From contig MFQZ01000002.1 of the NCBI GenBank assembly GCA_001784435.1, positions 12,502 through 76,501 on the forward strand: 64,000 nt of DNA, given 5' to 3'. A model generated the notes under the pieces. It had not been told where the DNA came from and made no database searches. It saw nothing but the letters and a program-made list of their open reading frames with translations. The position numbers and the translations under genes were made by a program. The stretch comes from Candidatus Magasanikbacteria bacterium RIFOXYC2_FULL_42_28 (lineage in GTDB: Bacteria; Patescibacteriota; Patescibacteriia; Magasanikbacterales; GWA2-37-8). Shown here in pieces: positions 3,511 to 59,615 of this stretch. Each line of letters begins with the position of its first letter. Position 1 is the stretch's first letter.

Positions 3511-3581
3511 AGCGAGTGAAGGGAATCGAACCCACGCCTCAACCTTGGGAAGGTCGCGTACTACCATTATACTACACTCGC
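3511..3581 (-). tRNA. tRNA-Gly (anticodon CCC)
   Basis: The reverse complement GCGAGTG...CACTCGC forms a perfect 7-bp acceptor. Anticodon stem is CGACC/GGTTG, loop TTCCCAA and T-loop TTCGATT. CCA is not encoded. Confidence 0.8.
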
Positions 3582-3670
3582 AGTGAGCGGAAAGAAAAGA
3601 AACTTGTTTATTTTCTTTCCCGAACTAAAAAGGCAGACCAAATGATCTGCCTTCATTATACTATATTTGG

Positions 3671-4685: not shown

Positions 4686-5096
4686 TTAATTTTTATTATC
4701 GGGTTTATGTAAAAAGTAGTTTAACCATTTAATCGGATTGGCCAAGTTTTTAAATTCTAACATATTATTGTTTTCCTGTCCAACTTTTATTCCCGCCACG
4801 TTGGGGATAATTCCGATTTGTTCACCCGGTTTAGCCAAATTCAATTCCAAACGAGCTTTTTCTTCAATAAAATCCTCGGATTTAACATATGCCAAAGCAT
4901 CCAAAGTGCTTAATTTTTTTACTTCCAAACGTTTAACATCTTCTTGTAAACGCGCGATTTCTTGACGCACCTGATAATCCTCATAAAAAGCGCGAGCAAA
5001 AGCGGTAATAACAAAAATAGCTACCAAAAAACCAATGGCTAAAAACCAACGCGACCAAAAGAAATTACGCCATTTTTTGTTTGTTACTCCGGCCAT
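4686..5096 (-). CDS. septum formation initiator FtsB/DivIC-like protein
   Basis: Single TM followed by a coiled coil (QVRQEIARLQEDVKRLEVKK), with the size typical of FtsB. Confidence 0.45.
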   Translation of the reverse strand: MAGVTNKKWRNFFWSRWFLAIGFLVAIFVITAFARAFYEDYQVRQEIARLQEDVKRLEVKKLSTLDALAYVKSEDFIEEKARLELNLAKPGEQIGIIPNVAGIKVGQENNNMLEFKNLANPIKWLNYFLHKPDNKN

Positions 5097-5103
5097 ATCA
5101 CCG

Positions 5104-6372
5104 CTATTTTTTTATTTTTAAAAGCAATTCCCGCGCCACTTGCCTGTCATCCCAAGGAATTTTTACGCCACCACTAACGCAAATTACCGGCTCGGTTCCT
5201 TTGGCGGTAAATACCACCACATCGCCAACTTTTGCCAATAAGTATGATAACGCAAAAGCGCGTTTACGGTCAACCTCAATAAATAAATTTTGATTATCAA
5301 TTTTACCGGCCGAACGCGCGCCCGAAGCGAGCATTTCTGCAATCTGGGTCGCGTCTTCATCAAAACAATTTACATCGGTAACAATGACAATGTCGCATAA
5401 CCGGCCGGCCACTTCGCCCATTTTGGAACGTTTACCCACGTCCCGACCACCGCCATCCGAACCAATGACGCCAATAATTTTTTTATCTTTGGCGAGCGCG
5501 CGCAACGATTTAAACAGCGCGGTCAAACTAATTGGTTCATGCGCGTAATCAACTATCACGGTAAAATTTTGTCCGGCTTTAATAAATTCCATGCGTCCGG
5601 CGATTTCTTTAACACTCGCTAAACCTTGAGCAATTTTATCGTCGGGCATGCCTTGCGACTTACCAACTTCGATTGCCAAGACAGCATTAATAACATTAAA
5701 TTCTCCCGCGACATTTATTCGGTAGCCATAACTGCTATAATCAAATTCAATTCCCGACGCATCGCTATTTTTTATTTTAGCTGAACTGGGTCGGGCTTGA
5801 ATTCTTTTGTCAGCCGTAAATTGCGCGTAAAAAGGCGCGTGTTCGTCGTCGGAATTGACAATGCTAATTTTTTGAACCGTTTGACCGCCAAAAACTTTTC
5901 GGAATGATTGTAGACTTTTAAATAATTTTCCTTTGGCAGATTTCAAATTTTCAAAACCGCCGTGGCGTTCGGAATGTTCTGTGCCGAGATTAGTAAAAAC
6001 GGCAATGTCGTAATTTAAACCATAATGGCGATATTGGGCAATGCCTTCCGAAGAAGTTTCGACAACTGCGTAACGACAGCCCGCCGTAACCATATCGCGC
6101 AACATTTTATGAATTTGCCCTAAACCCAGCATGGTCATTTTTTTGTCATTCAACCAACGTTTTTCCGCAATCTGGAATTCCACGGTGGTGAGTAGGCCGA
6201 CTTTGTGCCCGGTGGCCTCTAACACGCTCGCTATAAAACGACAGGTGCTGGATTTACCTTTGGTGCCGGTAACGCCGACGACAATTAGTTTGCGGCTAGG
6301 GCGACCGTAATACCAATAGGTGGCGACGGCGATTAGATAATGTTTTAGTTCGTTTAGTTTTTGTTTTAACAT
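5104..6372 (-). CDS. Mur ligase family protein (MurE/MurF-like central and C-terminal domains; N-terminal domain absent)
   Basis: The P-loop GVTGTKGKSST lies about 35 aa from the N-terminus, and the Mur ligase central and C-terminal domain pattern follows. Confidence 0.65.
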   Translation of the reverse strand: MLKQKLNELKHYLIAVATYWYYGRPSRKLIVVGVTGTKGKSSTCRFIASVLEATGHKVGLLTTVEFQIAEKRWLNDKKMTMLGLGQIHKMLRDMVTAGCRYAVVETSSEGIAQYRHYGLNYDIAVFTNLGTEHSERHGGFENLKSAKGKLFKSLQSFRKVFGGQTVQKISIVNSDDEHAPFYAQFTADKRIQARPSSAKIKNSDASGIEFDYSSYGYRINVAGEFNVINAVLAIEVGKSQGMPDDKIAQGLASVKEIAGRMEFIKAGQNFTVIVDYAHEPISLTALFKSLRALAKDKKIIGVIGSDGGGRDVGKRSKMGEVAGRLCDIVIVTDVNCFDEDATQIAEMLASGARSAGKIDNQNLFIEVDRKRAFALSYLLAKVGDVVVFTAKGTEPVICVSGGVKIPWDDRQVARELLLKIKK

Positions 6373-6386
6373 AAATTATTATCAAT

Positions 6387-6466
6387 TGTCATCCCGGACT
6401 TGATCCGGGATCTCTGTCCAACGATTTTACGAACGGACAGGGATCCCGATTTTCATCGGGATGACA
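6387..6466. repeat. GC-rich palindromic element (GPE), two units head-to-head
   Basis: TGTCATCCCGGActtgaTCCGGGATCTCTGTCC-spacer-GGACAGGGATCCCGAttttcaTCGGGATGACA. The left half is the reverse complement of the right half. Confidence 0.8.
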
Positions 6467-6480
6467 AAACGAGTGAACGA

Positions 6481-7053
6481 CTAAGCTCGCAACGATGTCT
6501 CATACACCACCTGCTCCAATTTATGCAACGCCTGTTTCGCCTGATCAAATTTATTGCGATTGTATCCGGTCAAATCCATATCTACCAGTTCACCAATAAT
6601 TTCTTCCGCTACCGCATGGCATCTTTTTACCATTGGAAAATTTTTAGCAGTCGCGGATTTAATGGCATAACGATAAAGCTCGCCCGGCAAATCACACATG
6701 CCACCAATATAGGTATCGGGCTCAATTGGCAAACCGGAAATTTTCCCCAATTCCTTGCCATCACAAAATTGCTTAAATAAATATGCTTCCACATATTCTT
6801 CCACACCGGCCAAATATGCGCCTTCATCAAACAATGCACTATCGCCTTTAAATTGTTTTTGCAAAGCCAACAACATTTTTTCCGATTGCGCCAAACATTC
6901 TTCACCAACTTTTTTATCATCGCGCTGAAAGGCAAAAATCGCTTTTTTGGCAAAATGCTGGGCATCGCCAGCGGACTTAATTACCTCCCGACGTTTGGTG
7001 CGATAGCCCAAAATTTGGGTGCGGATGGTGGCGAGATATTTTTTGTTAATCAT
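6481..7053 (-). CDS. Translin-family-like protein (tentative)
   Basis: The C-terminal motif YIGGMCDLPGELYRYAI resembles the translin/TRAX DLTGELMR catalytic-Glu motif, and the ~190 aa helical size fits. Recalled from memory, not verified. Confidence 0.35.
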   Translation of the reverse strand: MINKKYLATIRTQILGYRTKRREVIKSAGDAQHFAKKAIFAFQRDDKKVGEECLAQSEKMLLALQKQFKGDSALFDEGAYLAGVEEYVEAYLFKQFCDGKELGKISGLPIEPDTYIGGMCDLPGELYRYAIKSATAKNFPMVKRCHAVAEEIIGELVDMDLTGYNRNKFDQAKQALHKLEQVVYETSLRA

Positions 7054-9048: not shown

Positions 9049-9104
9049 ATATTTATGCTTCTATTGTATCGTATTTCTCGTTATTAGTAAATGATTAATT
9101 ATTA

Positions 9105-9136
9105 GACAGAGATCCCGAATCAAGTTCGGGATGACA
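9105..9136. repeat. GC-rich palindromic element, single unit
   Basis: GACAGAGATCCCGAatcaagtTCGGGATGACA, followed by a separate terminator-like hairpin at 9145-9180. Confidence 0.8.
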
Positions 9137-9194
9137 GTTAAAACAAAAAAAATCCCTCCGAAATTCGGAAGGATTTTTGAGTCAAGGTTAAAAT

Positions 9195-19860: not shown

Positions 19861-21364
19861 ATCGTTTAATTATTTTTACTAAACCAATATTGGCGTTAAC
19901 TTCTACCAAATCGCCGTCTTTTAAAACATCCGTCGCAATAATTGTACCAATAATACAAGGGACACCAAGCTCGCGCGCGATAATAGCGGCGTGACAAGTA
20001 ATTCCGCCATCATCAGTAATAATAGCTTTGGCTTTTTTCATGGCCGGTAAATGTTCTGGTCTAGTCATAGAAGTCACCATAACATCACCTGAATTTATTT
20101 TATGATTATCACTACTGCTTAAAACTAATTTAACTCGACCGCGCGCGAACCCCAAAGAAGCAGGCATCCCTTTAAATTCAGAAATTTTAGATTCAGATTT
20201 TTTATATATTTTATCTAAAATTTTTCTAACCTCTTTTTTGGCGGTAATCACTCTTAAAATTTTTCCCCGACTAACCAAATACAGGCATCCGTTTTGGCGG
20301 ATTTTTAATTGTCTAATTATGTTATGATTGGATTTATGTGATAACAAACTCACAACATCTTTCGACGTACTATTAATTAATAAATTAAAATCCACACCAG
20401 CTCGCTTGGCCACTTCCCGCAAAAACCGATCATACAAAGTAGCAAAAGTAAGAGTAAATTCTTTGCGCTCATCTTGCCATTTAACAAAAATTTCGGTCAA
20501 ACGCGCAATGGCAATTATCTCCGGAGTAAACTTGTATCTTTTGAATAATGCCAATTTTCGTTTTTTTATTGCCACAATACTTTCGGGCGCTTTGATGTCC
20601 ACTAAAATGTGTTTAATTGATTCCTCTAAATTTTCTAACGTATATTCCTTCCAACCACGATAACTGCTTTTTATCCAAGAATACTTTTTTAGGTGTTTAT
20701 TTATCAATTCATTAAACTTTTTATTTTCACTTTTTTTAAGCCAATCTGCCAATTTATCATCAGTATTAAATCCAACCCGTCGCAATTTTATTACTATCTT
20801 TTTTAATTCGCTTTCCTCTCTGTTAATAAATGAAAAATCAGCGGAGGCAGTTAAGGGAGAAAAAATGCCGGCAAAATCCGAAATTCTATTTTTTTTACAA
20901 AAATCTTGTAGTAATCCCGACAAGCGTCTTTCCGCATAGAACACATACCCGTCAATAAATCCAGGCATAGAAACCTTGAACTCATAAAAATTTATAAACT
21001 TTTTTTGCCAAATGATCAATTGTTTCTCGCTTAATTTAGATAAATCATAATCATAATAAAAAGAATACCTTTTCATCATCAATTGATAATTTTTCTCCCA
21101 ACGCGCGCGCAAATTGATAATTGTCGCTGGATTACGCAAAAACTCTTTTATTACAAAAGAGCCGATGCGATTTTGGTCTTCCACCAAAGTTATCCAGTCA
21201 CCTTTTCCATCTCGGTAATTACACATGCAGAAACGAAAAGGTGGAATTTTTGTATTATAAAGCCGGCTGGTAAATCCGGTTCTGGTCATTGACAAAAACG
21301 CCAGATAGACATCAATATTTTTTTCAATATTTAACGGTTGTTTTACAAAACTATCTAAATTCAT
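19853..21364 (-). CDS. swivel-domain paralog 5
   Basis: C-terminus DDGGITCHAAIIARELGVPCIIGT...GDLVEVNA. The N-domain carries the KKYSWIKSSY motif. Confidence 0.7.
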   Translation of the reverse strand: MNLDSFVKQPLNIEKNIDVYLAFLSMTRTGFTSRLYNTKIPPFRFCMCNYRDGKGDWITLVEDQNRIGSFVIKEFLRNPATIINLRARWEKNYQLMMKRYSFYYDYDLSKLSEKQLIIWQKKFINFYEFKVSMPGFIDGYVFYAERRLSGLLQDFCKKNRISDFAGIFSPLTASADFSFINREESELKKIVIKLRRVGFNTDDKLADWLKKSENKKFNELINKHLKKYSWIKSSYRGWKEYTLENLEESIKHILVDIKAPESIVAIKKRKLALFKRYKFTPEIIAIARLTEIFVKWQDERKEFTLTFATLYDRFLREVAKRAGVDFNLLINSTSKDVVSLLSHKSNHNIIRQLKIRQNGCLYLVSRGKILRVITAKKEVRKILDKIYKKSESKISEFKGMPASLGFARGRVKLVLSSSDNHKINSGDVMVTSMTRPEHLPAMKKAKAIITDDGGITCHAAIIARELGVPCIIGTIIATDVLKDGDLVEVNANIGLVKIIKRYE

Positions 21365-21365
21365 A

Positions 21366-22853
21366 TTATTTTTGTATAATTTTCACGACTCCACGGTCGG
21401 CATCGACTTCCACCAAATCACCATCTTTTAAAACTTTGGTCGCGACTTTAGTGCCAATAATACAAGGAATGCCTAGCTCACGCGCTATAATAGCGGCATG
21501 ACACGTAAGACCGCCCTCATCAGTAATTATCGCTTTTGCTTTTTTCATCGCCGGTAAAAATTCCGGCTGGGTCATGCAGGCAACTAGGATATCACCTTGA
21601 CGCATTTTAGAGATTTCTTTTTCTCCTCGGCATACCTTGGCTATGCCAATCACCTTTCCCGAAGACGCACAGGCGCCTTTCAGTTCGGTTATTATACCAC
21701 CGTCTTGTTGCTGATTCATTTCTAAAATTTTGAAATACTTTTTCGCTTGCGCGCCAGAAAATACCAATCCTTTGAGGCCAGGCAAAAGAACAAATAAGCT
21801 TGTCTTTCGGCGTTTTTTTAATTCCGGCATAATACCCGGCAACTTCTCCAATTCTAACGCACGAATATAGCGCAGATCGTTCATAGAGACATTAAATCTA
21901 CGACTAATCTCTAACAACAAAGAATCAAGGTAGTGAATTGTTCGTGTCAGACATTCTTTACGCCGATCGTGAATTTGAAAAATTTTGTCACCGATGGTTA
22001 ATAAATTTTTTAATTCCTTATTTTTTATTTTTTTTCGTAGGGCATCACGCTTCTTAACACGAATAGATAACGATTGATAATCAAAGATAATTTTATCCAA
22101 ATCAACTTTCTTGGATAATAACTCCCTGATTTCATCTACAAAATCTTCCGGTAATAATTTTTTGGCCGAAGTATATCCATTTAATTTCCAAAAATATTTT
22201 TGCTGATGTTTTATTAATTTTTTCAGTATGTCGGGATATTTTTTTAAATCTGTGACTGATGAAAGAGTAATTTTTTTATTCTTAATTAAACGAGCCAGCA
22301 AACACAATTCATAATGCTCGATTATCATAAACGAATGGAGACGCGGGGTCGTTAAGAGTATTGTTTTATCTAAAATATCATCTTTAAATTCTTCTGCGAT
22401 TAATTTTCTGATTTTATCTTCAGTAGTCAAACTAAACCCTTCAACGATGTGTGACACACTGCACAAATAAGCAGACAAATCATTAATTTGCCGCCAAAAA
22501 GAAAAAAGCTGTTTGACACTTGCTGTTTGCCAGTTTTTTCGTTCAATTCTATCGTAAGCAGACAAAACTTCGTGGCAAATTTTTTCATTTTCACGAACCA
22601 AATAACCTGGATAATTTTTGTTACCTGCGCATTTTTTCAACAATATCTCTAAAATAGCGCAAAGATCATCCCAAGCATAAGCATAGTAACAGACATCATC
22701 TTTAAAATATTCAATACAGGCGCAATAACCAAATCCCAAAGCTTTTGGCATATCGCGCACCATGGAAAACGCCGGACCATAAAGCATCGCTGGAGTAGCG
22801 TTAAACCCTTGCAAATACCAATTCTTTTTCAATAAATTATCTACATTTATCAT
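21366..22853 (-). CDS. swivel-domain paralog 6
   Basis: C-terminus DEGGLTCHAAIIARELGIPCIIGT...GDLVEVDA. The N-domain carries QQKYFWKLNGY. Confidence 0.7.
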   Translation of the reverse strand: MINVDNLLKKNWYLQGFNATPAMLYGPAFSMVRDMPKALGFGYCACIEYFKDDVCYYAYAWDDLCAILEILLKKCAGNKNYPGYLVRENEKICHEVLSAYDRIERKNWQTASVKQLFSFWRQINDLSAYLCSVSHIVEGFSLTTEDKIRKLIAEEFKDDILDKTILLTTPRLHSFMIIEHYELCLLARLIKNKKITLSSVTDLKKYPDILKKLIKHQQKYFWKLNGYTSAKKLLPEDFVDEIRELLSKKVDLDKIIFDYQSLSIRVKKRDALRKKIKNKELKNLLTIGDKIFQIHDRRKECLTRTIHYLDSLLLEISRRFNVSMNDLRYIRALELEKLPGIMPELKKRRKTSLFVLLPGLKGLVFSGAQAKKYFKILEMNQQQDGGIITELKGACASSGKVIGIAKVCRGEKEISKMRQGDILVACMTQPEFLPAMKKAKAIITDEGGLTCHAAIIARELGIPCIIGTKVATKVLKDGDLVEVDADRGVVKIIQK

Positions 22854-29385: not shown

Positions 29386-30837
29386 TTAAACCTTTTTAAT
29401 TACTTTTATTATACCACTATTAGCATCAACTTCAACCATGTCACCATCTTTCAAAATTGAAGTTGCGACTTGAGTGCCAATTACGCATGGAATACCAAGT
29501 TCTCGCGCTACTATCGCGGCGTGGCATGTTATACCACCCTCATCAGTTATAATAGCGACCGCCTTCTTCATAAGCGGTAAATACTCCGGTCTGGTCATTG
29601 GCGCCACTAAAATATCACCTGATTTCATTTTATTAAAATCTGCAGGAATTTTAATAACTTTAACAGTGCCAACGATAATACCCCGACTGGCCGATTGACC
29701 CTTTAATTCCTTAAATTGATTGTTAAATTGTTGTTCAAGTATTTTTAAAAACTCAACACATTCCCTACCGGTTAATACCACAGTTTTGTTATTGCGATCA
29801 CAATAATATATACTTTTTTTCGCGCGATTGGCTAATTCTTTTTTATAAGATTGGCCAAAATTCAAACGAGTAGAAAATATTTCTTCCGGCACAGCAAACA
29901 AAACATGTTTGTAAGGCGTACCGGCACGACGAGCAAATTCCTGCGCAAATAAATAATAATAACCAACCCCAATCATCGCTTCCCTTTTTCGTTCATCACG
30001 CCAATAACCCATACGGCGAAAAAAATAAAAAATATTATCCACCTCTTTGGGTAAACGCAATTCTTTCAACAAATTTCGACGATTCTCATTTTTATTTGAA
30101 TGTTCTAATTTAATCTTTTTAATTTTTCGTGTAATTTCTGACAGATGAATTTTTAACAATTTTTCAAAATTTTTAGTAAAATAATCTAATTTCAAAGTAG
30201 TCGCATGCGCCCAATCACGTTGAAGCCAAAAATATTTCTGTTGATGAAATTGTAGTAATGTGCCTCGCTTATTTACTGGAGACATCCTAACGTTTAACAA
30301 ACCTAATTCTTCTTGCTGTGTTAACGTCATCTCCTTCGGGGTCGTAATTAAAACCAGATCATCTGGTTTAATAGTTAAATTATATTTATTTATAACATCA
30401 TTAATTATTTTATCCCCCCATGGGTCAAACGCTTCAATATGAACACTAATAACCCACGACTGGTAATCAGCATTAACAAATTTCTTATACAAATTCAATA
30501 AATGCGACAAACTAAGTTTTGATAAATCTCTCAATTCTATATACTTAACAAGTGAATTTCTTTCATTTATGCAATTTTCCCAAGTAGTTATTTTAGAATC
30601 TATATAACGGCGATCGCGACTTTGTTTGACGATATCCGCATTTCCAGCTTTCAGCTCAGCTAAACTGTTAAAATACCCACGATGCATAACCCCATCTTGA
30701 TGGACTATAAGGTTTTTTTTGCCCCACAATTTCATACCAGAATAAAATGGAACAATAAAATAAAATGGCACGCCTGCTCCACCTTGCCGATACCAATTCA
30801 CTGTTTTAATATAATTTAAATCAATACCCGAAAGCAT
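29386..30837 (-). CDS. swivel-domain paralog 10
   Basis: C-terminus DEGGITCHAAIVARELGIPCVIGT...GDMVEVDA. The N-domain carries QQKYFWLQRDW. Confidence 0.7.
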   Translation of the reverse strand: MLSGIDLNYIKTVNWYRQGGAGVPFYFIVPFYSGMKLWGKKNLIVHQDGVMHRGYFNSLAELKAGNADIVKQSRDRRYIDSKITTWENCINERNSLVKYIELRDLSKLSLSHLLNLYKKFVNADYQSWVISVHIEAFDPWGDKIINDVINKYNLTIKPDDLVLITTPKEMTLTQQEELGLLNVRMSPVNKRGTLLQFHQQKYFWLQRDWAHATTLKLDYFTKNFEKLLKIHLSEITRKIKKIKLEHSNKNENRRNLLKELRLPKEVDNIFYFFRRMGYWRDERKREAMIGVGYYYLFAQEFARRAGTPYKHVLFAVPEEIFSTRLNFGQSYKKELANRAKKSIYYCDRNNKTVVLTGRECVEFLKILEQQFNNQFKELKGQSASRGIIVGTVKVIKIPADFNKMKSGDILVAPMTRPEYLPLMKKAVAIITDEGGITCHAAIVARELGIPCVIGTQVATSILKDGDMVEVDANSGIIKVIKKV

Positions 30838-30838
30838 A

Positions 30839-32314
30839 CTATTTCCTTATAATTCGAACTGAATTATGGTTGGCGTTAACTTCTACCAAATCACCATCTT
30901 TTAATAATTTAGTGGCAAATTTTGTGCCCACCACACAGGGAATTCCGAGCTCGCGCGAAACAATCGCGGCGTGACACATTACCCCGCCTTCGTCTGTTAT
31001 AATCGCACCGGCACGACGCATTGCCGGCACATAATCAGGACTCGTCATCGAGGCTACTAAAATATCACCCTGTTCAACTTTATTTACTTCATTAGCGCTA
31101 TGAAGCACTTTCACTTTACCACTGCAAAATCCCGCCGAGGCAATTATCCCATCGAGTTTGCCGGTACTAACTTCTTCCGGCAATAAATATTCTGCCATGC
31201 GAGCATCAGGATCGTTTAATTTAACATCGATATTCTTGCCTTGCCACCAAACATAACAATGCTTTTGGCGCTGTTCTAAAATTTCTTTTAAAATAATTTT
31301 GCCTGTTTTCAAAGCTAAAAATACTTCTTGCGGTAAATAATACTGCACTAACTCCCTTTTTATTCCTAAACGTCGACCAGTTTCAGCTAATATCCTCTCC
31401 GCCCAAAAATGTACTTGGGTAAATATTTCTTTTTTATAATCCATCAAATATCCACCTTGGCGCATAATTTTAAAATATGCGCGATACTCTGGTGAAATTT
31501 TTAATTCTTTTTCTAAACCCCGCTGGCGGATTGATAAATTTTTAAAATATTTTTCGCTCGATTTTATTTTTTCTGCCAATTTAGGATTTTTTATCATTAA
31601 ACGTAAAACTTCGGTAAAATATTTTTCATTCCAGATATACATTCCATAATCAAATGGTACCCAAAAATATTGACGGGTGTGATTTTTTATTACTAATTTT
31701 TTATTTTTTATTTTGTTATTACGAATTTTTAATGCCAACTTCGTCAAATCATCTTCTTCGCGTTTTACAAATGATTTTTCTGCTGGCGATACTAATATGT
31801 TATACATCGCCGAGTAATCTTGTCGATCGCCGTTTATCAATTTTTTCAGATAGTCAAATAATAACGGAGAAAGTTTTTCTTCTAATAATATTACTAACGG
31901 TTCGCTACAGATATAAGCGGCTTCATACATCTGTAAATATTGTTTCCAAAATTGAGATAATTCTGCATTAGAAAATTTTGACAAATCTTTCGTACTGACA
32001 TTTTTAACAAAAGTTAATAAACTATTAGACAACTTTGTGAATAATTTACTATTTTTTTTAATTAAATTTGGATCACTTTTTAGCTGATAAATTAATTCTT
32101 CAGCTGAACTTTTAATTTGACTACTTGAGGCGTACCAATACATAACATTATCCCGGTACACACATCTCGTCTCGCCAAAACTTTTCCCGCGCAATACGTT
32201 TTTCAAACCATAAGTAAAAACATGCCCGATGACATAAACATTGGGAAATATAAATACATTTTCTTTTCTTTGTTTAAAGATATAATCTCTTAACATACTT
32301 AAATATAATATCAA
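30839..32314 (-). CDS. swivel-domain paralog 11
   Basis: C-terminus DEGGVMCHAAIVSRELGIPCVVGT...GDLVEVNA. The N-domain carries TRQYFWVPFDY. Confidence 0.7.
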   Translation of the reverse strand: MILYLSMLRDYIFKQRKENVFIFPNVYVIGHVFTYGLKNVLRGKSFGETRCVYRDNVMYWYASSSQIKSSAEELIYQLKSDPNLIKKNSKLFTKLSNSLLTFVKNVSTKDLSKFSNAELSQFWKQYLQMYEAAYICSEPLVILLEEKLSPLLFDYLKKLINGDRQDYSAMYNILVSPAEKSFVKREEDDLTKLALKIRNNKIKNKKLVIKNHTRQYFWVPFDYGMYIWNEKYFTEVLRLMIKNPKLAEKIKSSEKYFKNLSIRQRGLEKELKISPEYRAYFKIMRQGGYLMDYKKEIFTQVHFWAERILAETGRRLGIKRELVQYYLPQEVFLALKTGKIILKEILEQRQKHCYVWWQGKNIDVKLNDPDARMAEYLLPEEVSTGKLDGIIASAGFCSGKVKVLHSANEVNKVEQGDILVASMTSPDYVPAMRRAGAIITDEGGVMCHAAIVSRELGIPCVVGTKFATKLLKDGDLVEVNANHNSVRIIRK

Positions 32315-32362
32315 ATAAACTCAAAAAAAACAACCTTGCTATTCGCGAGGTTGTCTATATAA

Positions 32363-34288
32363 CTATTCATCTATATTCTCCACTCGATTTGGCAAAATTG
32401 TTCTTGGCTGGGTTGGACGAGTGATTGACATGTTTCTAGGCTCGCTTTGCTCGCTCGGAACACCAAGGCTTCGCCGTGCTACGCCCCGCGAACCAGGACC
32501 AACAGAGTTTGATTTTGGTTGAAGTGATGACAGTGACATCCCCTTTTCGTTTGGATCTGTTAAAATTATTGGAGTGGGGCTACCAAAAGAATTACTGGCT
32601 TGATCATTTTTATGGCGATTGCGGTGGCGTTTTTTTTTAGGTGGTTGCGTGCCGAATTGAGGTTGTGCAATAGGTCGCGGTAAGGAATTGCTTACCGACT
32701 TAGTTGGGATCGGAATGATAGTTGAGCCAGAGATCCCGACTTTCGTCGGGATGACAGGCGAAGTTGGTGCACGGGATAGAGATTCCTCCTTCGGCGTCGG
32801 AATGACAAACGCATGCTTAACCGAAACCACCCCCTCGCCCCCTCCTTGAAAAGGAGGGGAAATTGACGGCGATTTAATTGGTACCGGTGCTTTTTCAAAC
32901 ATCGCCTCGTCATCATCTACTTCCAATTCCGATGCATCGTCATCGTTCATAATCACCATCCCACTCCAGCGCGCAATTTTATCTTCAATCTTATCTTTCG
33001 GCACGGCATAGCGTTCACGCGACACGCGCACTACTTTTTCTTGGCTATGCGTGGTTTGAGCAATGGGTGGCAAAGTTAAGGCGGAAAAGGGTTTACTCGC
33101 AATCCCATCAATCATTAATTTTAAATAAATATGATACTTGGGCAAATTCACCAGGTCCTCTTCAATAAAAGTTGGAATAAATTCTTTGGCCAAAATTTCC
33201 GCGTCCGTGGATCCAACCCGAAATGTTACCATCGTGCCCACGTTGCCGATGACCGCGGCCAACACTTCTTCTTCTAACTGTTCCATATACTGATGCGCCA
33301 TAATCAAATCCAAACGATATTTACGCGCTTCGGATAAAATATTAGCAAAACTTTCCGTGGCAAAATTTTGAAATTCATCAACATACAAAAAGAAATCTTT
33401 GCGATCTTTTTCCGGCGTGTCTACCCGCTCCATCGCGGCCAACTGTAATTTAGTGATAAGCATGCCACCCAAAAGCCGTGAATTATCTTCACCAATTCGG
33501 CCTTTAGCCAAATTCATGATTAAAATCTTTTTGTTATCCATTATTTCGCGAATATCAATGCGCGATTTAACCTGCGCCACAATATTGCGAATAACCGAGG
33601 CGGATAAAAATTGACCGATTTTATTTTGAATAGGGGCAACAGCTTCCTGGCGATATTTATCATTGTAAGCGGCGAATTCTGTCTGCCAAAACGCTTTCAC
33701 CACCGGATCTTTTAAATTGGCCACGACGCGTTTACGATAATCCGCGTCCGCGAGCAAGCGGTTGATACCAAGTAAAGTCGTACCGGGAAAATCCAATAAC
33801 GCCAAAATAGTATTGTTCAAAATATATTCCATACGCGAACTCCAAACATCCGGCCAGATTTTTTTAAACACACCCATTAGCCCCGACGCGACCAAATGTT
33901 TGTATTCCGGGCGCACGGTTTCTAAAATATTAAAACCGATTGGAAAATCAATGTCCGAGGGATTAAAATATATCACATCGTTGATGCGATGAGGCGGAAT
34001 GAAATCAATAATTTTTTCCGCGAAATCGCCGTGCGGATCAACTAACCCCACACCATGCCCGGCATAAATATCGTTCAAAACCATGTTTTCCAAAATCGTC
34101 GTCTTACCCATGCCAGTTTTGCCCACCACATACATATGGCGACGACGGTCATCAACTTTAATGCCAAATTTACGATTTTGATTACGATAATTTACCAAAC
34201 CAAAAAAATTGATCTCGGGGTTAATCGCGACCAAGGATTTTGGTTCTGCCGGAGCTGGTGTTATCGGTTGATCAAATTCGTCGGACAT
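32363..34288 (-). CDS. soluble VirD4/TrwB-like (type IV coupling protein family) P-loop ATPase with low-complexity C-terminal tail
   Basis: Walker A YVVGKTGMGKTT followed by GLVDPHGDF, compared with TrwB GxTGxGKS...VDPNGD. No N-terminal TM. The C-terminal ~200 aa is Pro/Ser-rich and hosts in-frame GPE copies. Confidence 0.5.
   Translation of the reverse strand: MSDEFDQPITPAPAEPKSLVAINPEINFFGLVNYRNQNRKFGIKVDDRRRHMYVVGKTGMGKTTILENMVLNDIYAGHGVGLVDPHGDFAEKIIDFIPPHRINDVIYFNPSDIDFPIGFNILETVRPEYKHLVASGLMGVFKKIWPDVWSSRMEYILNNTILALLDFPGTTLLGINRLLADADYRKRVVANLKDPVVKAFWQTEFAAYNDKYRQEAVAPIQNKIGQFLSASVIRNIVAQVKSRIDIREIMDNKKILIMNLAKGRIGEDNSRLLGGMLITKLQLAAMERVDTPEKDRKDFFLYVDEFQNFATESFANILSEARKYRLDLIMAHQYMEQLEEEVLAAVIGNVGTMVTFRVGSTDAEILAKEFIPTFIEEDLVNLPKYHIYLKLMIDGIASKPFSALTLPPIAQTTHSQEKVVRVSRERYAVPKDKIEDKIARWSGMVIMNDDDASELEVDDDEAMFEKAPVPIKSPSISPPFQGGGEGVVSVKHAFVIPTPKEESLSRAPTSPVIPTKVGISGSTIIPIPTKSVSNSLPRPIAQPQFGTQPPKKKRHRNRHKNDQASNSFGSPTPIILTDPNEKGMSLSSLQPKSNSVGPGSRGVARRSLGVPSEQSEPRNMSITRPTQPRTILPNRVENIDE
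32706..32807. repeat. GC-rich palindromic elements inserted in-frame in a CDS (two or three units)
   Basis: cagAGATCCCGActttcgTCGGGATGACAgg and GGATAGAGATTCCtccttcggcgtcGGAATGACAaa, translated on the minus strand as ...FVIPTPKEESLSRAPTSPVIPTKVGISGS... Confidence 0.75.
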
Positions 34289-34297
34289 AGTTGCTAT

Positions 34298-34392
34298 AAA
34301 ATTTCAAAATCCAAATTTCCAATTTCCAATCAAATCAAAATGTCAAATATCAAATTTTGACATTGGAAATTGGAAATTTGACATTATCGTAT
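34298..34392. repeat. AT-rich palindromic element, TTTCCAATTTCC family, copy 2
   Basis: aaatttcaaaatccaaatttccaatttccaat...cattggaaattggaaatttgacatt. Confidence 0.7.
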
Positions 34393-36425: not shown

Positions 36426-36828
36426 TTGCTAAATCCTTAACACTAATCTCACCTGGATTTTTAATTATAGAATGGACACTGCCACCACCATCACCGGTAT
36501 AGCGTGGCAAAATGTGCCAGTGCACATGCGGCACAGCTTGACCAGCAACTGGCGCATTATTAATGCCGATATTCATACCATCCGGATTTAAGCGCGCTTG
36601 CACTCGCCCGGCGGCAGCGCGCAACCCAACTGATAAAAGTTGAAAATCCTCTACGCTCATACTCCAAATATTTTCAAAATGTTTTTTGGGGACTACCACG
36701 GTATGGCCTTGGGCGTGCGGAAATACGTCTAAAAATGCTAAACAATTTTCATCTTCATAAACGGTGTAATTGGGAATTTGACCAGCGATGATTTTGCAAA
36801 ATATACAATCCATACAATTAATTTTCAA
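36409..36828 (-). CDS. HIT family protein (histidine triad nucleotide-binding)
   Basis: HIT motif HVHWHILPR. Confidence 0.85.
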   Translation of the reverse strand: MKINCMDCIFCKIIAGQIPNYTVYEDENCLAFLDVFPHAQGHTVVVPKKHFENIWSMSVEDFQLLSVGLRAAAGRVQARLNPDGMNIGINNAPVAGQAVPHVHWHILPRYTGDGGGSVHSIIKNPGEISVKDLASKFKS

Positions 36829-39037
36829 TTACTAAAATATCTCCAAATTTTTTAACAATTGCTTTATTATTATACCTCACTTCTCCTTCTTTTACCACCC
36901 CAAAACAACGACTCGCGCCGGTCAGTATTTTACTGTCCGCGAGTATTGCTTCGGCACTGCGCATTTTAAATTTATTAAATAATTGGACGCGTTCGGGTTG
37001 AGCAAAATTTTGGCCCATGGGAAATCCACCACCGATTATGGTTTTTGCGGAAATTGCTTCCAGGGCTAGTAGCGGATAAGTGTCAGCCAAGACACAGGGG
37101 CGCCGAGATTGCTTCTCTTCGCTCGCAATGACAGAATATACATAATCCATGGCCTGATATTCATCACGGCTGACCGTTTTAGCGTCTGGACCGAGAGAAT
37201 ATGAGGCGGTAATCGCGAGAGAGATAATAAAAATAATAAACAACAACGCGATAGATTGCTCCCCGCCAGAGGCGGACAGGCGTCTGATCCTCGCAATGAC
37301 AAAGTTGATTGCACCCGCTACCATTATGATGGCAAGCCAGGCCAAAACCACATCTAACCGGCGCGCTAATAAATTATCGCCAGTTAAAAAATAACGAGAA
37401 ATAATATTGCCGGACATTAGACCGAGAAATAATAGGGCAAGTAATTTTTGTCGCGGGCGATAGATTGCTTCGTCAGCGCCGGTGGCACCTCCTCGCAATG
37501 ACAAAAAGGCACCGAACAATGTCACGAACCAAAATAAAATCGCAAATCCAACCAGCCACCAGCGCCATTGCATTAGAATATTCACGACAAACGCGTAAGA
37601 CGGCGCTTGATTAAATAAAATATTTCCGGACGCGATGTCATGCGGACGCGGGCCACTTGCAAAATAATACGCGGAAAAATTACCAACGGTCTGTTGCGCT
37701 TGGCCGAGCCAATTTATATTAGGATTAAATTGTGAGTAATTGGTGATGAGTTCAATAATGGGGATGGATAGAGCAACGAGAATAAAAACCAACGGAAAGA
37801 TAAAAATAGATTGCCGCGTCGCTGCGCTCCTCGCAATGACAAAGTAAACCATCCACGCCAACCAAAATAAAATAAAATATAACGTATAACCAAAAATTAA
37901 TAACACGCCGGCAATTGCCAAAAATAGTATCCCTAATTTTTCGCCAACCGGACGCTTAACAATCATTAACAATAAAAACAGCCAAAATAAAAAATCGATA
38001 TTAACCGGCAAGGTGGTGGCGCCGGCAATTTGCAAGCCAAATGGCAAAAATCCCAACCAAACTAAAAATAATGATTCGGATTTCTTCCACCCCAAAGCCC
38101 TCCCCCATTCAAACGCCAAAATCGGAAAAAATAACGCCCACAAAATCGGCCCGAACCAGCGATTAAAACTCATTAAATCAAAATTGAAAAAAGTTTTGCC
38201 GATTATGCCCAATGACCAAAATTGCGCGTAACCCAATCGACCAATATCTAATTTTTGCCAAAAATTGGATTCGCCTATGGGAGCAACAGTTGAAAAACTA
38301 TTTCCCGCCACCAAATTTAATTCCTGTCCCAAATGCCGCCAACTATCGGCATTATAAAAATACTCATGTGTGGCTGGCAAATAACTGGTAAGCAAAAATG
38401 CGTGCGCGCAAAGTAAAAACAACACCACCTTGGCTGGTAATTTCGCAAAACATAAAAATCCTAAAACTAAAGTAGCGGCGCCGAACCAATAAATATAGGC
38501 GGACGGTAAAATTTGCCAAGGGGTAACAGGGCTTGGCTGCGTTACACCCTGTAAACCGTCAGTGCCAATTGTAAATAATTGATGGGCGGTAATTAACCAC
38601 AAAACAACATACAAAAACACCCCAGCTTTGTTGCGTGGCATTTCCTGCAAAATTTTCAAATTATCATCAAACCAAGCCAGCATTTCTGACTCCTCTTGAT
38701 TCTCTCTCCAAAAAATCAAAGGCAATAACCCTGCCCCAAATAGCGCCAAAGCCACGCTAAGGGGCGTAAAATGATAGAAACACAGCGAAAGCCCAATGAT
38801 CCACCCGGCGCTCATAAGCGCTCCCAAGGCCGCCAAGAGCCGTACACGCAAAGCGCGTGGTGAAAAATCAAATCTAACAACTAAAATTCGGCGCCACCAT
38901 TTGGCTGTAATTAGCCAATAAAATAAAAAAATGGCGCTTTTTTGCCAAGTAGGCGCGTTATAAAATAATAAAAAAAATATCAAACCGGATATAATAAATA
39001 GGCCCAATAACTTTTTGGAAAACACGCGAAAATTCAT
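36818..39037 (-). CDS. large polytopic membrane protein (about 20 TM; possible lipid-linked glycosyltransferase-like) carrying four in-frame GPE insertions
   Basis: Hydrophobic throughout. No catalytic motif recognised. Confidence 0.4.
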   Translation of the reverse strand: MNFRVFSKKLLGLFIISGLIFFLLFYNAPTWQKSAIFLFYWLITAKWWRRILVVRFDFSPRALRVRLLAALGALMSAGWIIGLSLCFYHFTPLSVALALFGAGLLPLIFWRENQEESEMLAWFDDNLKILQEMPRNKAGVFLYVVLWLITAHQLFTIGTDGLQGVTQPSPVTPWQILPSAYIYWFGAATLVLGFLCFAKLPAKVVLFLLCAHAFLLTSYLPATHEYFYNADSWRHLGQELNLVAGNSFSTVAPIGESNFWQKLDIGRLGYAQFWSLGIIGKTFFNFDLMSFNRWFGPILWALFFPILAFEWGRALGWKKSESLFLVWLGFLPFGLQIAGATTLPVNIDFLFWLFLLLMIVKRPVGEKLGILFLAIAGVLLIFGYTLYFILFWLAWMVYFVIARSAATRQSIFIFPLVFILVALSIPIIELITNYSQFNPNINWLGQAQQTVGNFSAYYFASGPRPHDIASGNILFNQAPSYAFVVNILMQWRWWLVGFAILFWFVTLFGAFLSLRGGATGADEAIYRPRQKLLALLFLGLMSGNIISRYFLTGDNLLARRLDVVLAWLAIIMVAGAINFVIARIRRLSASGGEQSIALLFIIFIISLAITASYSLGPDAKTVSRDEYQAMDYVYSVIASEEKQSRRPCVLADTYPLLALEAISAKTIIGGGFPMGQNFAQPERVQLFNKFKMRSAEAILADSKILTGASRCFGVVKEGEVRYNNKAIVKKFGDILVIEN
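37105..37842. repeat. four GC-rich palindromic element copies (ATTGC/GCAAT stem variant) inside a CDS
   Basis: Copies at 37105-37134, 37251-37302, 37460-37504 and 37806-37842. Each reads (G)ATAGATTGC-variable GC-rich hairpin-CTCGCAATGACA(A)AG. Three are translated as FVIAR... (a shortened VIAS version at the first copy), and the third copy in a different frame as FLSLRGG.... Confidence 0.8.
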
Positions 39038-40581: not shown

Positions 40582-40594
40582 CGCAACACACGCC

Positions 40595-40688
40595 TGTCAT
40601 TTCGAATCCCCCGTCGCAGTGGGGTGAGAAATCTCCATCTCGACGGGATAGAGATCCCTCGTCGGTGCGAACCTCGCTCGGGATGACA
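40595..40688. repeat. GC-rich palindromic element, complex copy
   Basis: TGTCATTTCGAA...cgacGGGATAGAGATCCCtcgtcg...CTCGGGATGACA. Confidence 0.7.
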
Positions 40689-40721
40689 AAATAAAAAAAT
40701 TAATTTTTAAATTAAAAATAT

Positions 40722-41624: not shown

Positions 41625-41628
41625 AAAA

Positions 41629-41647
41629 ATCCCGACTAAGTCGGGAT
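41629..41647. terminator. bidirectional rho-independent terminator, CCCGACTAAGTCGGG family
   Basis: aaaaaaATCCCGACTAAGTCGGGATtaaattttt, between convergent recR and rplU. Confidence 0.7.
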
Positions 41648-41667
41648 TAAATTTTTCTATTGCTTCT

Positions 41668-41973: not shown

Positions 41974-41993
41974 ATAATAATATCAACTTAATT

Positions 41994-42059
41994 GTCATGC
42001 TGAACTTGTTTCAGCATCTCCTGAAAATCACGGGATCCTGAAACAAGTTCAGGATGACA
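41994..42059. repeat. GC-rich palindromic element, ATGCTGAA/ATCCTGAA stem variant, double hairpin
   Basis: TGTC-ATGCTGAActtgtTTCAGCAT-ctcctgaaaatcacggg-ATCCTGAAacaagTTCAGGAT-GACA. Confidence 0.75.
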
Positions 42060-42098
42060 CGAATAATGGGCTAATTATAATACACTTCTATGTTTTTG

Positions 42099-48725: not shown

Positions 48726-48823
48726 TGTTCCCCACCTATATCCATTTTACACCACTTTAAAACACCTGTCAACATTTTAAACCAAAAATTGCCCTTTAAA
48801 TTTTGGCTAAAATATAACAAAAA

Positions 48824-48842
48824 GTCCCGACTAAGTCGGGAC
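48824..48842. terminator. rho-independent terminator, CCCGACTAAGTCGGG family
   Basis: caaaaaGTCCCGACTAAGTCGGGACtgtgg, downstream of the beta-CASP RNase gene and upstream of mraZ. Confidence 0.6.
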
Positions 48843-48868
48843 TGTGGATAAGTTTTTATACTTTTATT

Positions 48869-57810: not shown

Positions 57811-59592
57811 ATGAAGCAGTGGAATATACTACCGACACCGAGCCCGGAATTTTTAACTTCTCACCCGGAATTACCAAATATTATCGCGCGCTTACTTTGG
57901 AACCGCGGATTACAAACTCAAATTCAAATTGATGAATTTTTAAATCCGGATTATTTGGGCGATTTACACGACCCGGCTTTATTTCGCGACATGGAAAAAG
58001 CCGTGGATATTTTGTTTGACGCAATTAAAACCGACAAACGAATTGTCGTGCACGGCGACTATGACGCCGACGGTGTGTGCGCGGCGGCGATACTCGTCAA
58101 TACTTTAAAAAAATTAGGACACAAAAATGTCGGCGTATTTTTGCCCCACCGCGAAACCGATGGTTATGGCTTAAATTTAAATACGGTAAAATATCTGGCC
58201 GAACAAAAAACTGATATTATTATTACCTGCGACTGCGGTATTAGCAATGTCGCCGAAATTACCGCGGCCAAAACGGCCGGTATGAAAGTGATAGTCACCG
58301 ACCATCATACTATCCCACCGACACTTCCGCCCGCTGACGCGATTATTCATCCGCTCATAGAAGGGGAAACTTATCCGGACAAAGGCCTATCGGGCGGAGG
58401 CGTGGCTTTTAAATTAATGCAAGCACTTTTGAATCGTCATCATTTGGAAAATGAATTTTTGCCAGACGGTAAAACCCACGAATCATTTGAAAAATGGCAA
58501 TTGGATTTGGCGGCTATTTCCACGGTTGGCGATATGGTGCCATTAATTGGCGAATCCCGCACCATTGTGCGTTACGGCCTAACCGTGTTAAACAAAACCC
58601 GCAATTTGGGATTACAAAAATTATTACGCGTTATCGGCATTCACGACGAGAACGGCGAACCAAAACGTGGCACGATCACGGCCGAAACATTATCGTTCCA
58701 AATCGTCCCACGCATTAATGCCGCTGGCCGGATGGATCACGCTAATACCGCTTTCCAATTATTAACCGCCGAAACCGAAGCGGAAGCCAAAAAATTAGCC
58801 GAACTGTTAAATCAAAATAATTTAGACCGCCAAAAATTAACCGAAACGATTGTAACAGCGGCACGGGCACAAATCAAAGCCAATTCCCTCCCCGCCGACC
58901 CGGTGTTATTTGCTTACGACGAAAAGTGGATTACTGGCATTTTGGGTTTGATCGCTGGAAAAATTAAAGACGAATTTAATAAACCAACCATCATCATGGG
59001 AAAAAATAGTGGCGAAATTACTGGCTCGGGTCGCAGTATTCCGGAATTTAGTTTAATCGGGGCACTCCAAAAAATGCCGGAACATTTTCATAAATTCGGT
59101 GGCCACCCGATGGCTTGCGGTTTTTCTTTGAAATCAGAGGACGGGTTAGAAAATTTTAAAAAGGACTTGATAAAGTTGGCAAATGAGACAATCGCGGACG
59201 CTAATAAATTAGTACCGACAATAATTGTGGACGCGGAAGTAAATTTGGAAGATATCCACTGGGAATTATACGATTTATTACAAAAATTTGAACCATTTGG
59301 CCAAAAAAATGAAGAGCCAAAATATCTGGCACGCGGTTTAACTATTGTAAGCGTTGACCCGCTCGGCCAAACCGGCAAACATTTACGTCTGATGGTCAAG
59401 CACAACAATCAAACTGTTCGCAAAACTATCGCCTTTGGCCTAGGCGATATTAATAAGCATCCGGACGATTGGAAGGTGAATTTAAAACCAAATGATAAAG
59501 TGGATTTGGTGTTTACGGTGGGAGTAAACGAATGGAACGGCAATCGTGAGCTGGAATTAAAAATAATTGATATTAAAAAATCCCCCGACTAA
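57811..59592 (+). CDS. recJ: single-stranded-DNA-specific exonuclease RecJ
   Basis: DHH motifs (VVHGDYDADGVCAAAIL, DHH at TDHHT) and a DHHA1 region with GGHPMACGFSL. Confidence 0.85.
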   Translation: MKQWNILPTPSPEFLTSHPELPNIIARLLWNRGLQTQIQIDEFLNPDYLGDLHDPALFRDMEKAVDILFDAIKTDKRIVVHGDYDADGVCAAAILVNTLKKLGHKNVGVFLPHRETDGYGLNLNTVKYLAEQKTDIIITCDCGISNVAEITAAKTAGMKVIVTDHHTIPPTLPPADAIIHPLIEGETYPDKGLSGGGVAFKLMQALLNRHHLENEFLPDGKTHESFEKWQLDLAAISTVGDMVPLIGESRTIVRYGLTVLNKTRNLGLQKLLRVIGIHDENGEPKRGTITAETLSFQIVPRINAAGRMDHANTAFQLLTAETEAEAKKLAELLNQNNLDRQKLTETIVTAARAQIKANSLPADPVLFAYDEKWITGILGLIAGKIKDEFNKPTIIMGKNSGEITGSGRSIPEFSLIGALQKMPEHFHKFGGHPMACGFSLKSEDGLENFKKDLIKLANETIADANKLVPTIIVDAEVNLEDIHWELYDLLQKFEPFGQKNEEPKYLARGLTIVSVDPLGQTGKHLRLMVKHNNQTVRKTIAFGLGDINKHPDDWKVNLKPNDKVDLVFTVGVNEWNGNRELELKIIDIKKSPD

Positions 59593-59601
59593 GTCGGGGG
59601 A
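59581..59601. terminator. bidirectional rho-independent terminator, CCCGACTAAGTCGGG family
   Basis: aaaaaaTCCCCCGACTAAGTCGGGGGAttttttg, between convergent recJ and 59616-59924. Confidence 0.7.
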
Positions 59602-59615
59602 TTTTTTGCAATTAT

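Follow-up and report, generated by a model that had tools for sequence, protein, structure and literature searches.

Do short palindromic repeats that lie within a gene build part of the encoded protein, or do they settle where the protein already tolerates them? This question is raised by a 64-kb stretch (64,000 nucleotides, here called the window) of contig MFQZ01000002.1 from Candidatus Magasanikbacteria bacterium RIFOXYC2_FULL_42_28, in which an open reading frame (ORF) for a TrwB/VirD4-like P-loop ATPase carries several hairpin-forming units in the part that encodes its Pro/Ser-rich C-terminal tail. A preliminary description had suggested that recurrent insertion of such an element may itself be generating this tail. 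The comparative analyses presented here point to another answer: probably, hairpin repeats of a family dispersed in the window landed in permissive linkers of the tail, where they are translated, decay and get replaced, and the tail was neither created nor lengthened by them.

Hairpin units in the tail and elsewhere in the window

The tail contains three units built as TGTC-AT(stem)-loop-(stem)AT-CTCT, all in the same orientation, which represent a decay series from intact (unit 2) through half decayed (unit 1) to decayed (unit 3) (Table 1). Unit 2 has a perfect 8-bp stem, ATCCCGAC/GTCGGGAT, with a GAAA loop, and folds as single-stranded DNA (ssDNA) at -11.2 kcal/mol (z = -5.0 compared to shuffles). 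The interior of unit 1 is unpaired (-1.9 kcal/mol, z = +0.6), and its score of 33.6 bits in the covariance model of the family is that of a seed sequence. The 3' half of unit 3 now forms an unrelated 7-bp hairpin (32678-32697), its head reads ATCAT and it is missed by the covariance model; it is regarded as a real unit because an intact copy aligns at the same place in locus L081, which holds the closest orthologue with available DNA. The start-to-start distances between the units are 36 and 51 nucleotides (nt), both multiples of 3, and units 1-3 therefore share one frame (IIP / VIP / VIP). A possible fourth unit, fully decayed and assigned with low confidence, shows no hairpin (z = +1.4) and no covariance-model match. 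The preliminary description had recognized two clear units and a degenerate third, all of which are present, and the peptide it quoted is exactly the sequence encoded by the ORF. Its span of 32706-32807 needs correction, since unit 3 extends past 32706 to 32678.

Table 1. Position of the ATPase gene, of the repeats inside and outside it and of the features compared with them. Positions refer to the window unless a locus of another organism is named; aa, amino acids.
Feature	Position	Strand	Basis or remark
ORF, TrwB/VirD4-like (type IV coupling-protein-like) P-loop ATPase, 641 aa	32363..34288	-	Pfam match and homologues
ATPase core, aa 1-441	32966-34288	-	Pfam domains
ATPase tail, aa 442-641 (200 aa)	32363-32965	-	downstream of core
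Peptides encoded in the tail: VGISGSTIIPIPTK; HAFVIPTPK	ORF 32363-34288	-	ORF translation
Acidic start of tail, SGMVIMNDDDASELEVDDDEAMFE	32894..32965	-	in most of 120 homologues
Family B element ATTTCCCCTCCTTTTCAAGGAGGGGGCGAGGGGGTGGTTTCG, read ISPPFQGGGEGVVS	32822..32863	-	unrelated to GTCAT units
Unit 1, TTTGTCATTCCGACGCCGAAGGAGGAATCTCTATCCCGT, read FVIPTPKEESLSR	32771..32809	-	flanks intact, 5-bp ATTCC/GGAAT closing stem
Unit 2, intact hairpin CCTGTCATCCCGACGAAAGTCGGGATCTCTGGC, read PVIPTKVGISG	32725..32758	-	stem at 32733-32752
Unit 3, decayed, ATCATTCCGATCCCAACTAAGTCGGTAAGCAATTCCTTACCG, read IIPIPTKSVSNSLP	32678..32719	-	position-for-position alignment with intact unit GTCATTCCGACCGAGCGTAGCGAGCGGAGGAATCCCTTACCG of L081
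Basic patch KKKRHRNRHKN, 3' of units and in frame with them	32606..32638	-	strict regular expression, 72 of 120 homologues
Most conserved tail motif PTPIILTDPNEKGMSLSSLQP, consensus PVxLVDxxQKGISLxxL, in frame with units	32516..32578	-	96 of 120 homologues
Possible fourth, fully decayed GTCAT-type unit GGTGTTCCGAGCGAGCAAAGCGAGCCTAGAAAC, read GVPSEQSEPRN	32432..32464	-	resembles long-form VIPTERSERRNP of orthologue P0002; low confidence
C-terminal motif RTILPNRVENIDE and stop codon	32363..32404	-	PKTIxPGQVxKIDE-like ending in at least 77 of 120 homologues
Stem-loop (11-nt loop) and T8 run directly after stop codon	32324..32356	-	read from sequence
Intergenic inverted doublet, TGTCAT...ATGACA, 84 bp	6385..6468	.	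covariance model, copy rule
Intergenic single copy	9104..9138	-	covariance model, copy rule
Intergenic inverted doublet, long-form units; GGGATCTCTATCCCGT common to its right unit and tail unit 1	40593..40690	.	covariance model
Intergenic inverted doublet	41991..42061	.	covariance model, copy rule; copy 42034-42058 identical to element of metagenome contig L133
Four in-frame copies, ATTGC...GCAAT sub-type, membrane-protein ORF 36818-39037	37107-37132; 37254-37300; 37463-37502; 37809-37840	-	covariance model, copy rule
Family B copies in relatives	L081 ~3541-3600; L083 ~4792-4851; L007 4432-4470 (NPLLPKEGRGVVA)		sequence comparison
GIY-YIG genes of 84-85 aa	L086 1440-1770; L089 1480-1770; L093 1480-1775		named match P0143/L086 is Omnitrophota

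The units belong to a family built of a (T/C)GTCAT head, a stem starting from AT, a loop, a returning stem ending in AT, and then C(T/C)CT, with unit lengths of 24-47 nt (8-15 aa). A copy rule requiring GTCAT plus 3 nt, followed by the reverse complement of those 3 nt and ATC, identified 12 copies in the window versus 0.37 in 200 shuffles (shuffle maximum 3). Seven matches each were obtained with GTCATYCCGAC, allowing at most one mismatch (1.2 expected), and with GGRATCYCTRTC (0.7 expected). An alignment of ten copies, units 1 and 2 among them, reveals an invariant TGTCAT and a 7-bp helix in which 97% of the cells are paired and four of the seven pairs display compensatory changes, and the covariance model recovers the non-seed copies 40646-40690 (27.9 bits, E = 4e-6) and 40593-40640 (16.4 bits, E = 0.017). 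The TGTCAT head and an ATCYCTRTC tail are common to the tail units and to copies elsewhere in the window, and unit 1 has GGRATCTCTATCCCGT in common with the intergenic copy 40646-40690. Together with the conserved motifs that follow downstream in frame, these flanks uphold the earlier claim that the units are members of the same family and are read in frame. Two weak covariance-model matches (19954-19998 and 21461-21505) were rejected as false positives; the DNA there encodes xCHAAIIARELGxPC, a motif also present in the phosphoenolpyruvate (PEP)-utilising ORFs of the window, and TGTCA(T/C)GCCGC in it mimics the head.

The family is normally intergenic and often occurs as inverted doublets. Seven copies are located in the ~7% of the window that is non-coding, versus six in the ~93% that is coding (~61 genes), and the six coding copies are confined to two genes. 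The inverted doublets are REPIN-like composites of 66-98 bp bounded by TGTCAT...ATGACA; the tail copies are direct repeats. The other gene affected, ORF 36818-39037 on the reverse strand, encodes a multi-pass membrane protein of 739 aa without a Pfam match, in which the copies are read as FVIARSAATRQSI, FVIARIRRLSASGGEQSI, FLSLRGGATGADEAIY and SVIASEEKQSR. In an alignment with 11 homologues these copies appear as lineage-specific extra residues in variable loops, and they are missing from the closest homologue (61% identical). Another homologue of this protein, P0248, has one of these loops enlarged by a long segment of ~20 aa. Three terminator-like hairpins of the window (41628-41648, 48823-48843 and 59575-59607) have a common core, CCCGACTAAGTCGGG, with the same stem sequence as that of unit 2, and the last of them, between A6 and T6 runs, resembles a bidirectional terminator.

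A second hairpin in the tail, here termed family B, has a 9-bp stem, CCCCTCCTT/AAGGAGGGG (32839-32859; DNA fold -9.5 kcal/mol, z = -4.6), and a core TCCCCTCCTT-N3-AAGGAGGGG followed by CGAGGGG(G)TGGTT. Only one copy is present in the window. Tails of the ATPase in at least three lineages include its translated sequence, at three positions and in two frames: the copies of the orthologues P0002 (locus L081) and P0003 (locus L083) are found in the second linker of the tail, and that of L007 near the C-terminus in the other frame. We know of no name for this element.

The ATPase tail among homologues and orthologues

The basic patch, the QKGISL-type motif and the C-terminal motif are all encoded 3' of the units, in the same frame, and are conserved among 120 homologues, and a stem-loop with a T8 run, likely the real transcription terminator of the ATPase gene, is not encountered until past the stop codon. 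The tail thus belongs to the protein. A terminator scan allowing loops of 3-8 nt overlooked this stem-loop, probably because of its 11-nt loop, and identified no terminator-like sites inside the tail, where no T run follows the hairpins; a search of 32200-33100 in Rfam gave no match at E <= 1.

The tail survey encompassed the 120 ATPase homologues, and the scan for strict elements 80 species-representative orthologous loci. The order of the tail is conserved and comprises an acidic segment (SGMVxxxDEAxELEVDxDExMF), a Pro/Ser/Gln linker, a KKRKRK patch, PVxLVDxxQKGISLxxL, a second linker and PKTIxPGQVxKIDE. G583, S585 and L586 of the QKGISL-type motif are near-invariant in an alignment of 32 sequences, in which the core is near-invariant as well. 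The median tail length is 215 aa (range 12-340), and since the tail in the window (200 aa) is shorter than this median, the elements have not lengthened it. About 90% of the homologues have tails of 110-340 aa with the same motif order and without a recognisable element peptide, whereas element peptides occur in at least 11 of the 120, in either variable linker. The strict element was detected 0 times in tails, once in cores and 19 times elsewhere in the 80 loci, a count that decayed units escape, and insertion in the tail is on this ground a minority event. A few homologues have very short tails (12-71 aa), several of which look truncated, such as P0071 ending within the acidic motif. An AlphaFold2 model based on 32 close homologues predicts no secondary structure past residue 441. 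The model, the composition and the spread in length would thus agree with a tail that is disordered apart from short conserved motifs. The possibility that LVDPxQKGISL is itself an ancient, domesticated unit was rejected, as VDP...GIS occurs in only six of 82 loci, the proline is unconserved (VD[PTSA]) and the codons lack a pairing bias. A protein search with the element-rich 49-aa segment of the tail produced no candidate with sufficient word matches.

The closest orthologues for which DNA was available, P0002 (74% identity) and P0003 (72% identity), illustrate what happens in the linkers. The first linker of P0002 consists almost entirely of four consecutive elements, namely a unit in reverse orientation that ends in PRNDK, followed by VIPAKAGIQ, VIPTKVGIS and VIPTERSERRNP. 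That of P0003 contains VISNEREKSQ and VIPAQAGIQ and is wholly unlike the linker of P0002, while past the basic patch the two tails are near-identical and both carry a VIASEEKQSQ-type unit in the second linker. Unit 2 has an orthologous copy in P0002 with one G-T change, and unit 3 is intact in P0002 but decayed in the window. The three proteins have flanking tail sequence in common and differ in their element content, which is turnover within a spacer of conserved length and not growth of the tail.

Patescibacteria carry the ATPase gene as a conserved part of the chromosome. At least 8000 homologues were retrieved in the protein search, the named ones from Candidatus Magasanikbacteria and other Patescibacteria. 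The protein matches PF10412 TrwB_AAD_bind (E = 1.7e-12, 47.4 bits against a cut-off of 20.5), DUF87 and TraG-D_C (24.6, cut-off 22), and falls slightly under the cut-off for T4SS-DNA_transf (19.6, cut-off 20.1). It thus carries the TrwB_AAD_bind domain of the type IV coupling proteins (VirD4/TraD/TrwB), but is neither equivalent to a named member nor located in a conjugation or type IV secretion cluster. Like TraD of the F plasmid, it combines an ATPase core of TrwB/TraG-D_C signature with a long tail that is poorly ordered, includes acidic segments and is conserved at its very C-terminal end; unlike TraD, it scores far under all NCBIfam TraD/VirD4-type cut-offs (e.g. SXT_TraD, 43 versus 366) and lies outside any conjugation operon. 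The surrounding genes encode NUDIX, HIT and PEP-utilising enzymes (AMMECR1 too at the loci of relatives), not conjugation functions.

Synteny with L081 and L083 is kept over 29386-32314 of the window and comprises HIT, NUDIX, the ATPase and two tandem paralogues with PEP-utilising domains. AMMECR1 upstream and His_Phos_1 downstream of the ATPase are found in both of these loci and in neither place in the window. The 129-bp gap between the NUDIX and ATPase genes holds a large AT-rich inverted repeat (34298-34385), with perfect arms of 19 nt (CAAATTTCCAATTTCCAAT / ATTGGAAATTGGAAATTTG) inside imperfect arms of 30 nt; it overlaps what resembles a promoter and may serve as an operator or as the terminator of the NUDIX gene. 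In loci L013, L016, L024, L050 and L058, long-form GTCAT inverted doublets are situated shortly after the ATPase gene or the next small gene, beginning ~10-70 nt past the ATPase stop codon in L050 and L058. As such intergenic doublets follow the gene in several Patescibacteria, its 3' neighbourhood is often repeat-rich. The closest relative in the database, P0001, is a mosaic with 47 differences in residues 15-374 (87% identity) and 100% identity in residues 375-641, a stretch that takes in the whole tail with its units. This pattern suggests either recent recombination or a chimeric assembly.

Origin of the units

As detailed in the last section, the elements are quite probably hairpin repeats of the type known as Ssn-related motifs (SRMs), arranged like the repetitive extragenic palindromic (REP) elements and REPINs. 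The following course of events would account for their presence in the tail. Copies would build up between genes, and some would land in coding DNA or arrive there by recombination between copies, to persist only where the protein tolerates them and the net change preserves the frame; selection would retain the frame-preserving, stop-free arrivals in tolerant segments. In sense orientation a unit is free of stop codons in every frame, and in antisense orientation a stop occurs in one frame only (one TGA). The ATPase tail is probably permissive in this respect, with two Pro/Ser-rich, sequence-agnostic spacers that separate its short conserved motifs. Once in place, units would be translated as VIPxxxGIS-like peptides, presumably neutral for the protein, decay by point mutation and be replaced by new ones. 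The earlier proposal of recurrent insertion agrees with the different sets of elements found at different places in P0002 and P0003, and with the occurrence of element peptides among the homologues.

A small nuclease may be the partner of these repeats. A metagenome scan with the pattern GTCATCCCGA-N(4-7)-TCGGGATC retrieved at least 80 loci, and in one contig of 13.5 kb, L133, a gene for a single-domain GIY-YIG protein of 99 aa (6313-6703; PF01541, E = 4.6e-16) lies between two GTCAT hairpins in inverted orientation, the sole such elements in the contig. One is located 49 nt upstream of the gene and the other, inverted, over its stop codon, the latter corresponding base for base to the window copy 42034-42058. 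This arrangement looks like the NTS-ssn-NTS architecture described for the ssDNA nuclease Ssn (PMC11893778), and a similar nuclease may act on the repeats in the Magasanikbacteria genome. No ATPase homologue was present on metagenome loci with the same hairpin among the matches listed. With an approximate GIY-YIG pseudo-consensus, genes of another subgroup (84-85 aa; named ones from Omnitrophota or unclassified bacteria) were retrieved, which on three contigs lie closely between the arms of another perfect inverted repeat, TACCCCCACACCAA ... TTGGTGTGGGGGT. Further hairpins occur near these genes, in what looks like a parallel pairing of nuclease and repeat with another motif.

One alternative is that repeated insertion built the disordered tail of an ATPase that otherwise ends near residue 441-465. 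In this clade the elements do make up much of the tail, with 50 of the 85 residues (~59%) of the first variable linker being element-derived (family B 14, unit 1 12, unit 2 10 and unit 3 14) and ~25-30% of the whole tail; moreover, the linker of P0002 is almost entirely a row of elements, and a few homologues end after 12-71 aa of tail. However, the great majority of homologues possess a long tail with the same motif order and no element peptide, none of the 80 representative loci has a strict tail element, the tail in the window is below the median, and the short-tailed proteins are few and in several cases apparently truncated. The linkers might descend from ancient elements decayed past recognition, but this is unsupported by any test made here. 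Tail building by the elements is thus very unlikely, and the orthologue comparison which the preliminary description had itself proposed turns against its idea of a tail generated by the element: the tail is older than the element, even if the first linker is mostly element-derived in this lineage. It is still less credible, indeed scarcely conceivable, that the long ORF is an annotation artefact, with a protein ending near the core and GC-rich, stop-poor repeats holding the frame open. The G+C content of the tail (~0.43-0.52) does exceed that of its surroundings and a second frame is also open (74 codons, 32692-32916), but same-frame motifs continue past the units to the extreme C-terminus throughout the family, and the terminator-like structure comes after the stop codon of this ORF.

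Selection could also have acted on the hairpins as such, as cis-acting signals in DNA or mRNA (an Ssn cut or recombination site, a site of ribosome slowing or of transcript stabilisation), the peptide being incidental. The perfect stem and GAAA loop of unit 2 on the mRNA strand, shared with P0002 apart from the G-T change, would suit such a role, as would the RNA fold of a 201-nt region, which is better than that of shuffles (z = -2.7), the co-orientation of nearly all genic copies with transcription, the effect of the Neisseria NTS repeats on the integration of transforming DNA (PMC11893778) and the mosaic P0001 with its identical residues 375-641. On the other hand, units 1 and 3 have lost most of their pairing, most orthologues are without any unit, unit positions and sequences vary among close relatives, the breakpoint in P0001 (~residue 375) is not at a unit, and neither a U run after the hairpins nor an Rfam match was found, which renders a cis-acting role unlikely. 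Finally, the palindromes might be a by-product of selection for a repeated V-I-P-x3-G-I-S peptide, their resemblance to intergenic sequence being coincidental. The codons for D/I-P and G-I (ATCCC.../...GGGAT) are indeed partly self-complementary, and VDxxQKGIS is equally long and has V, G, I and S where that peptide has them. This is largely refuted by the flanks of non-coding type (TGTCAT, ATCTCTRTC and, in unit 1, ATCTCTATCCCGT) which the units have in common with intergenic copies; unit 2 also agrees with the family type base for base in its stem and loop, and the VDPxQKGIS codons show no pairing bias and an unconserved proline, so that a peptide-driven origin is extremely improbable.

Several observations weigh against the landing of SRM-type repeats in tolerant linkers as set out above. 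Units 1-3 and most window copies fail the published SRM expression. Rough phmmer and hidden Markov model screens with partly approximate queries detected no gene for a GIY-YIG/Ssn-like protein across the window and 85 orthologous loci, and phmmer with an approximate IS200 TnpA query detected no IS200/RAYT-like gene in the window. The link to a nuclease comes from a single metagenome contig, L133, and since the 84-aa group is associated with another repeat, not every small GIY-YIG gene pairs with the GTCAT motif. An unoccupied site with alignable flanks did not come to light, insertion being deduced from presence and absence. Twelve of the 13 copies located in genes, counting the window together with the tails of the two orthologues, are in sense orientation and most are in the V-I frame, which a purely neutral filter does not obviously predict. 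The stem of unit 2 is intact between proteins of 74% identity, and selection rather than youth may be the reason. The AlphaFold2 model is poor (mean pLDDT 46.6), and the description of the tail as disordered leans mainly on composition and variability.

If repeats did land in tolerant linkers, the short conserved motifs of the tail are likely the only functional parts of it in the Patescibacteria ATPase, the spacers tolerating wholesale replacement. A practical consequence is that stretches resembling VIPxxxGIQ/S, VIARxxxxxQS and PPFQGGGEG in proteins of the Candidate Phyla Radiation (CPR) would be translated repeat DNA, unsuitable for motif or homology inference. A wider reading, which we regard as a long shot, is that SRM-type repeats are a systematic source of new peptide segments in CPR, continually overwriting sequence-agnostic spacers such as the tail linkers of this ATPase and membrane-protein loops, and that, being substrates of an ssDNA nuclease that acts on incoming DNA, they turn such gene segments into hot spots of recombinational exchange between strains. 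The hot spots would then account for the mosaic of P0001, and a system of repeat and nuclease would shape the evolution of proteins as well as of intergenic DNA.

Comparison with known repeat families

The SRM/NTS class is defined by an oriented CGTCAT head followed by a hairpin of 20-50 nt, NTS being CGTCATTCCCGCGMAVGCGGGAATCYRG (Chenal et al. 2025, PMC11893778). The Neisseria repeat dRS3, ATTCCC-N8-GGGAAT, is part of the longer, oriented NTS repeat, and divergent versions are found across bacteria, such as NTSvar (CGTCATACTCGGG-N5-CCCGAGTATC) and, more generally, the SRMs; small single-domain GIY-YIG nucleases (Ssn; cd10448) bind these motifs in ssDNA and cut beside them, and the ssn genes are often bracketed by them (PMC11893778). 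The present elements resemble the SRMs in their oriented (C/T)GTCAT head, a stem starting with AT, an end in ...ATC and variable stems with compensatory changes. An inverted repeat of 20-50 nt is retained by unit 2 and the intergenic copies, and has been lost for the most part in units 1 and 3. The (H)GTCAT head is general, with unit 3 (ATCAT) deviating, and the enrichment over shuffled sequence is evident within the 64-kb window. The published expression, HGTCWYN(0-2)YYVSBRHN(0-5)WNVSBRGN(0-2)RNCYNB, was hand-built from 29 genomes and is a weak criterion. It is matched by the window copy 6387-6415 and by two units of orthologue tails, GTCATTCCCGCGCAAGCGGGAATC in L081 (VIPAKAGIQ), which also matches the dRS3 pattern, and GTCATCCCCGCAAAAGCGGGGATC in L083 (VIPAQAGIQ); the failure of the tail units and of most window copies is due to their stem, ATCCCGA/ATTCCGA. 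The setting also differs: the host here is a member of CPR/Patescibacteria and copies lie in coding sequence, neither of which is mentioned in PMC11893778.

REP and REPIN elements owe their mobility to RAYT transposases (Bertels and Rainey 2011, PMC3116915; PMC3337134). They share with the family short imperfect palindromes, a conserved oriented head, inverted doublets with a short spacer and singletons as apparent remnants. Inverted doublets were found at three intergenic sites and not in the tail. However, REPs are extragenic by definition and have a GTAG-type head, whereas copies here are translated and have a GTCAT head; besides the seven intergenic copies, those of the tail and the four in ORF 36818-39037 are coding.

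In-frame palindromic repeats, the SRM/NTS class and REPIN-like doublets are thus all known already, while repeats of the SRM class in coding sequence, in CPR, and clustered in the tail linker of a conserved ATPase were not found described in limited literature searches; a full-text search on VIPAKAGIQ retrieved no papers. The in-frame behaviour itself has its closest parallel in the Rickettsia palindromic elements (RPEs), which, as reportedly shown by Ogata et al. 2000, are inserted in frame in protein-coding genes. RPEs and some miniature inverted-repeat transposable elements are known to insert in this manner (PMC10969869). In both RPEs and the present family, palindromic repeats occur between genes as well as in frame in unrelated genes, where a peptide is added without destroying the protein and later decays by mutation. 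RPEs differ in being ~100-150 bp long, Rickettsia-specific and in encoding a conserved peptide of ~30-50 aa, compared to units of 24-47 nt clustered in one spacer, so that size and host place the present units outside the RPEs and the in-frame insertion alone is held in common. No new kind of system is revealed. The ATPase tail is a modest new example of a known phenomenon, one that takes the recently described Ssn-related hairpin repeats into CPR genomes and into coding DNA, and provides a second parallel, of much shorter units, to the RPEs.

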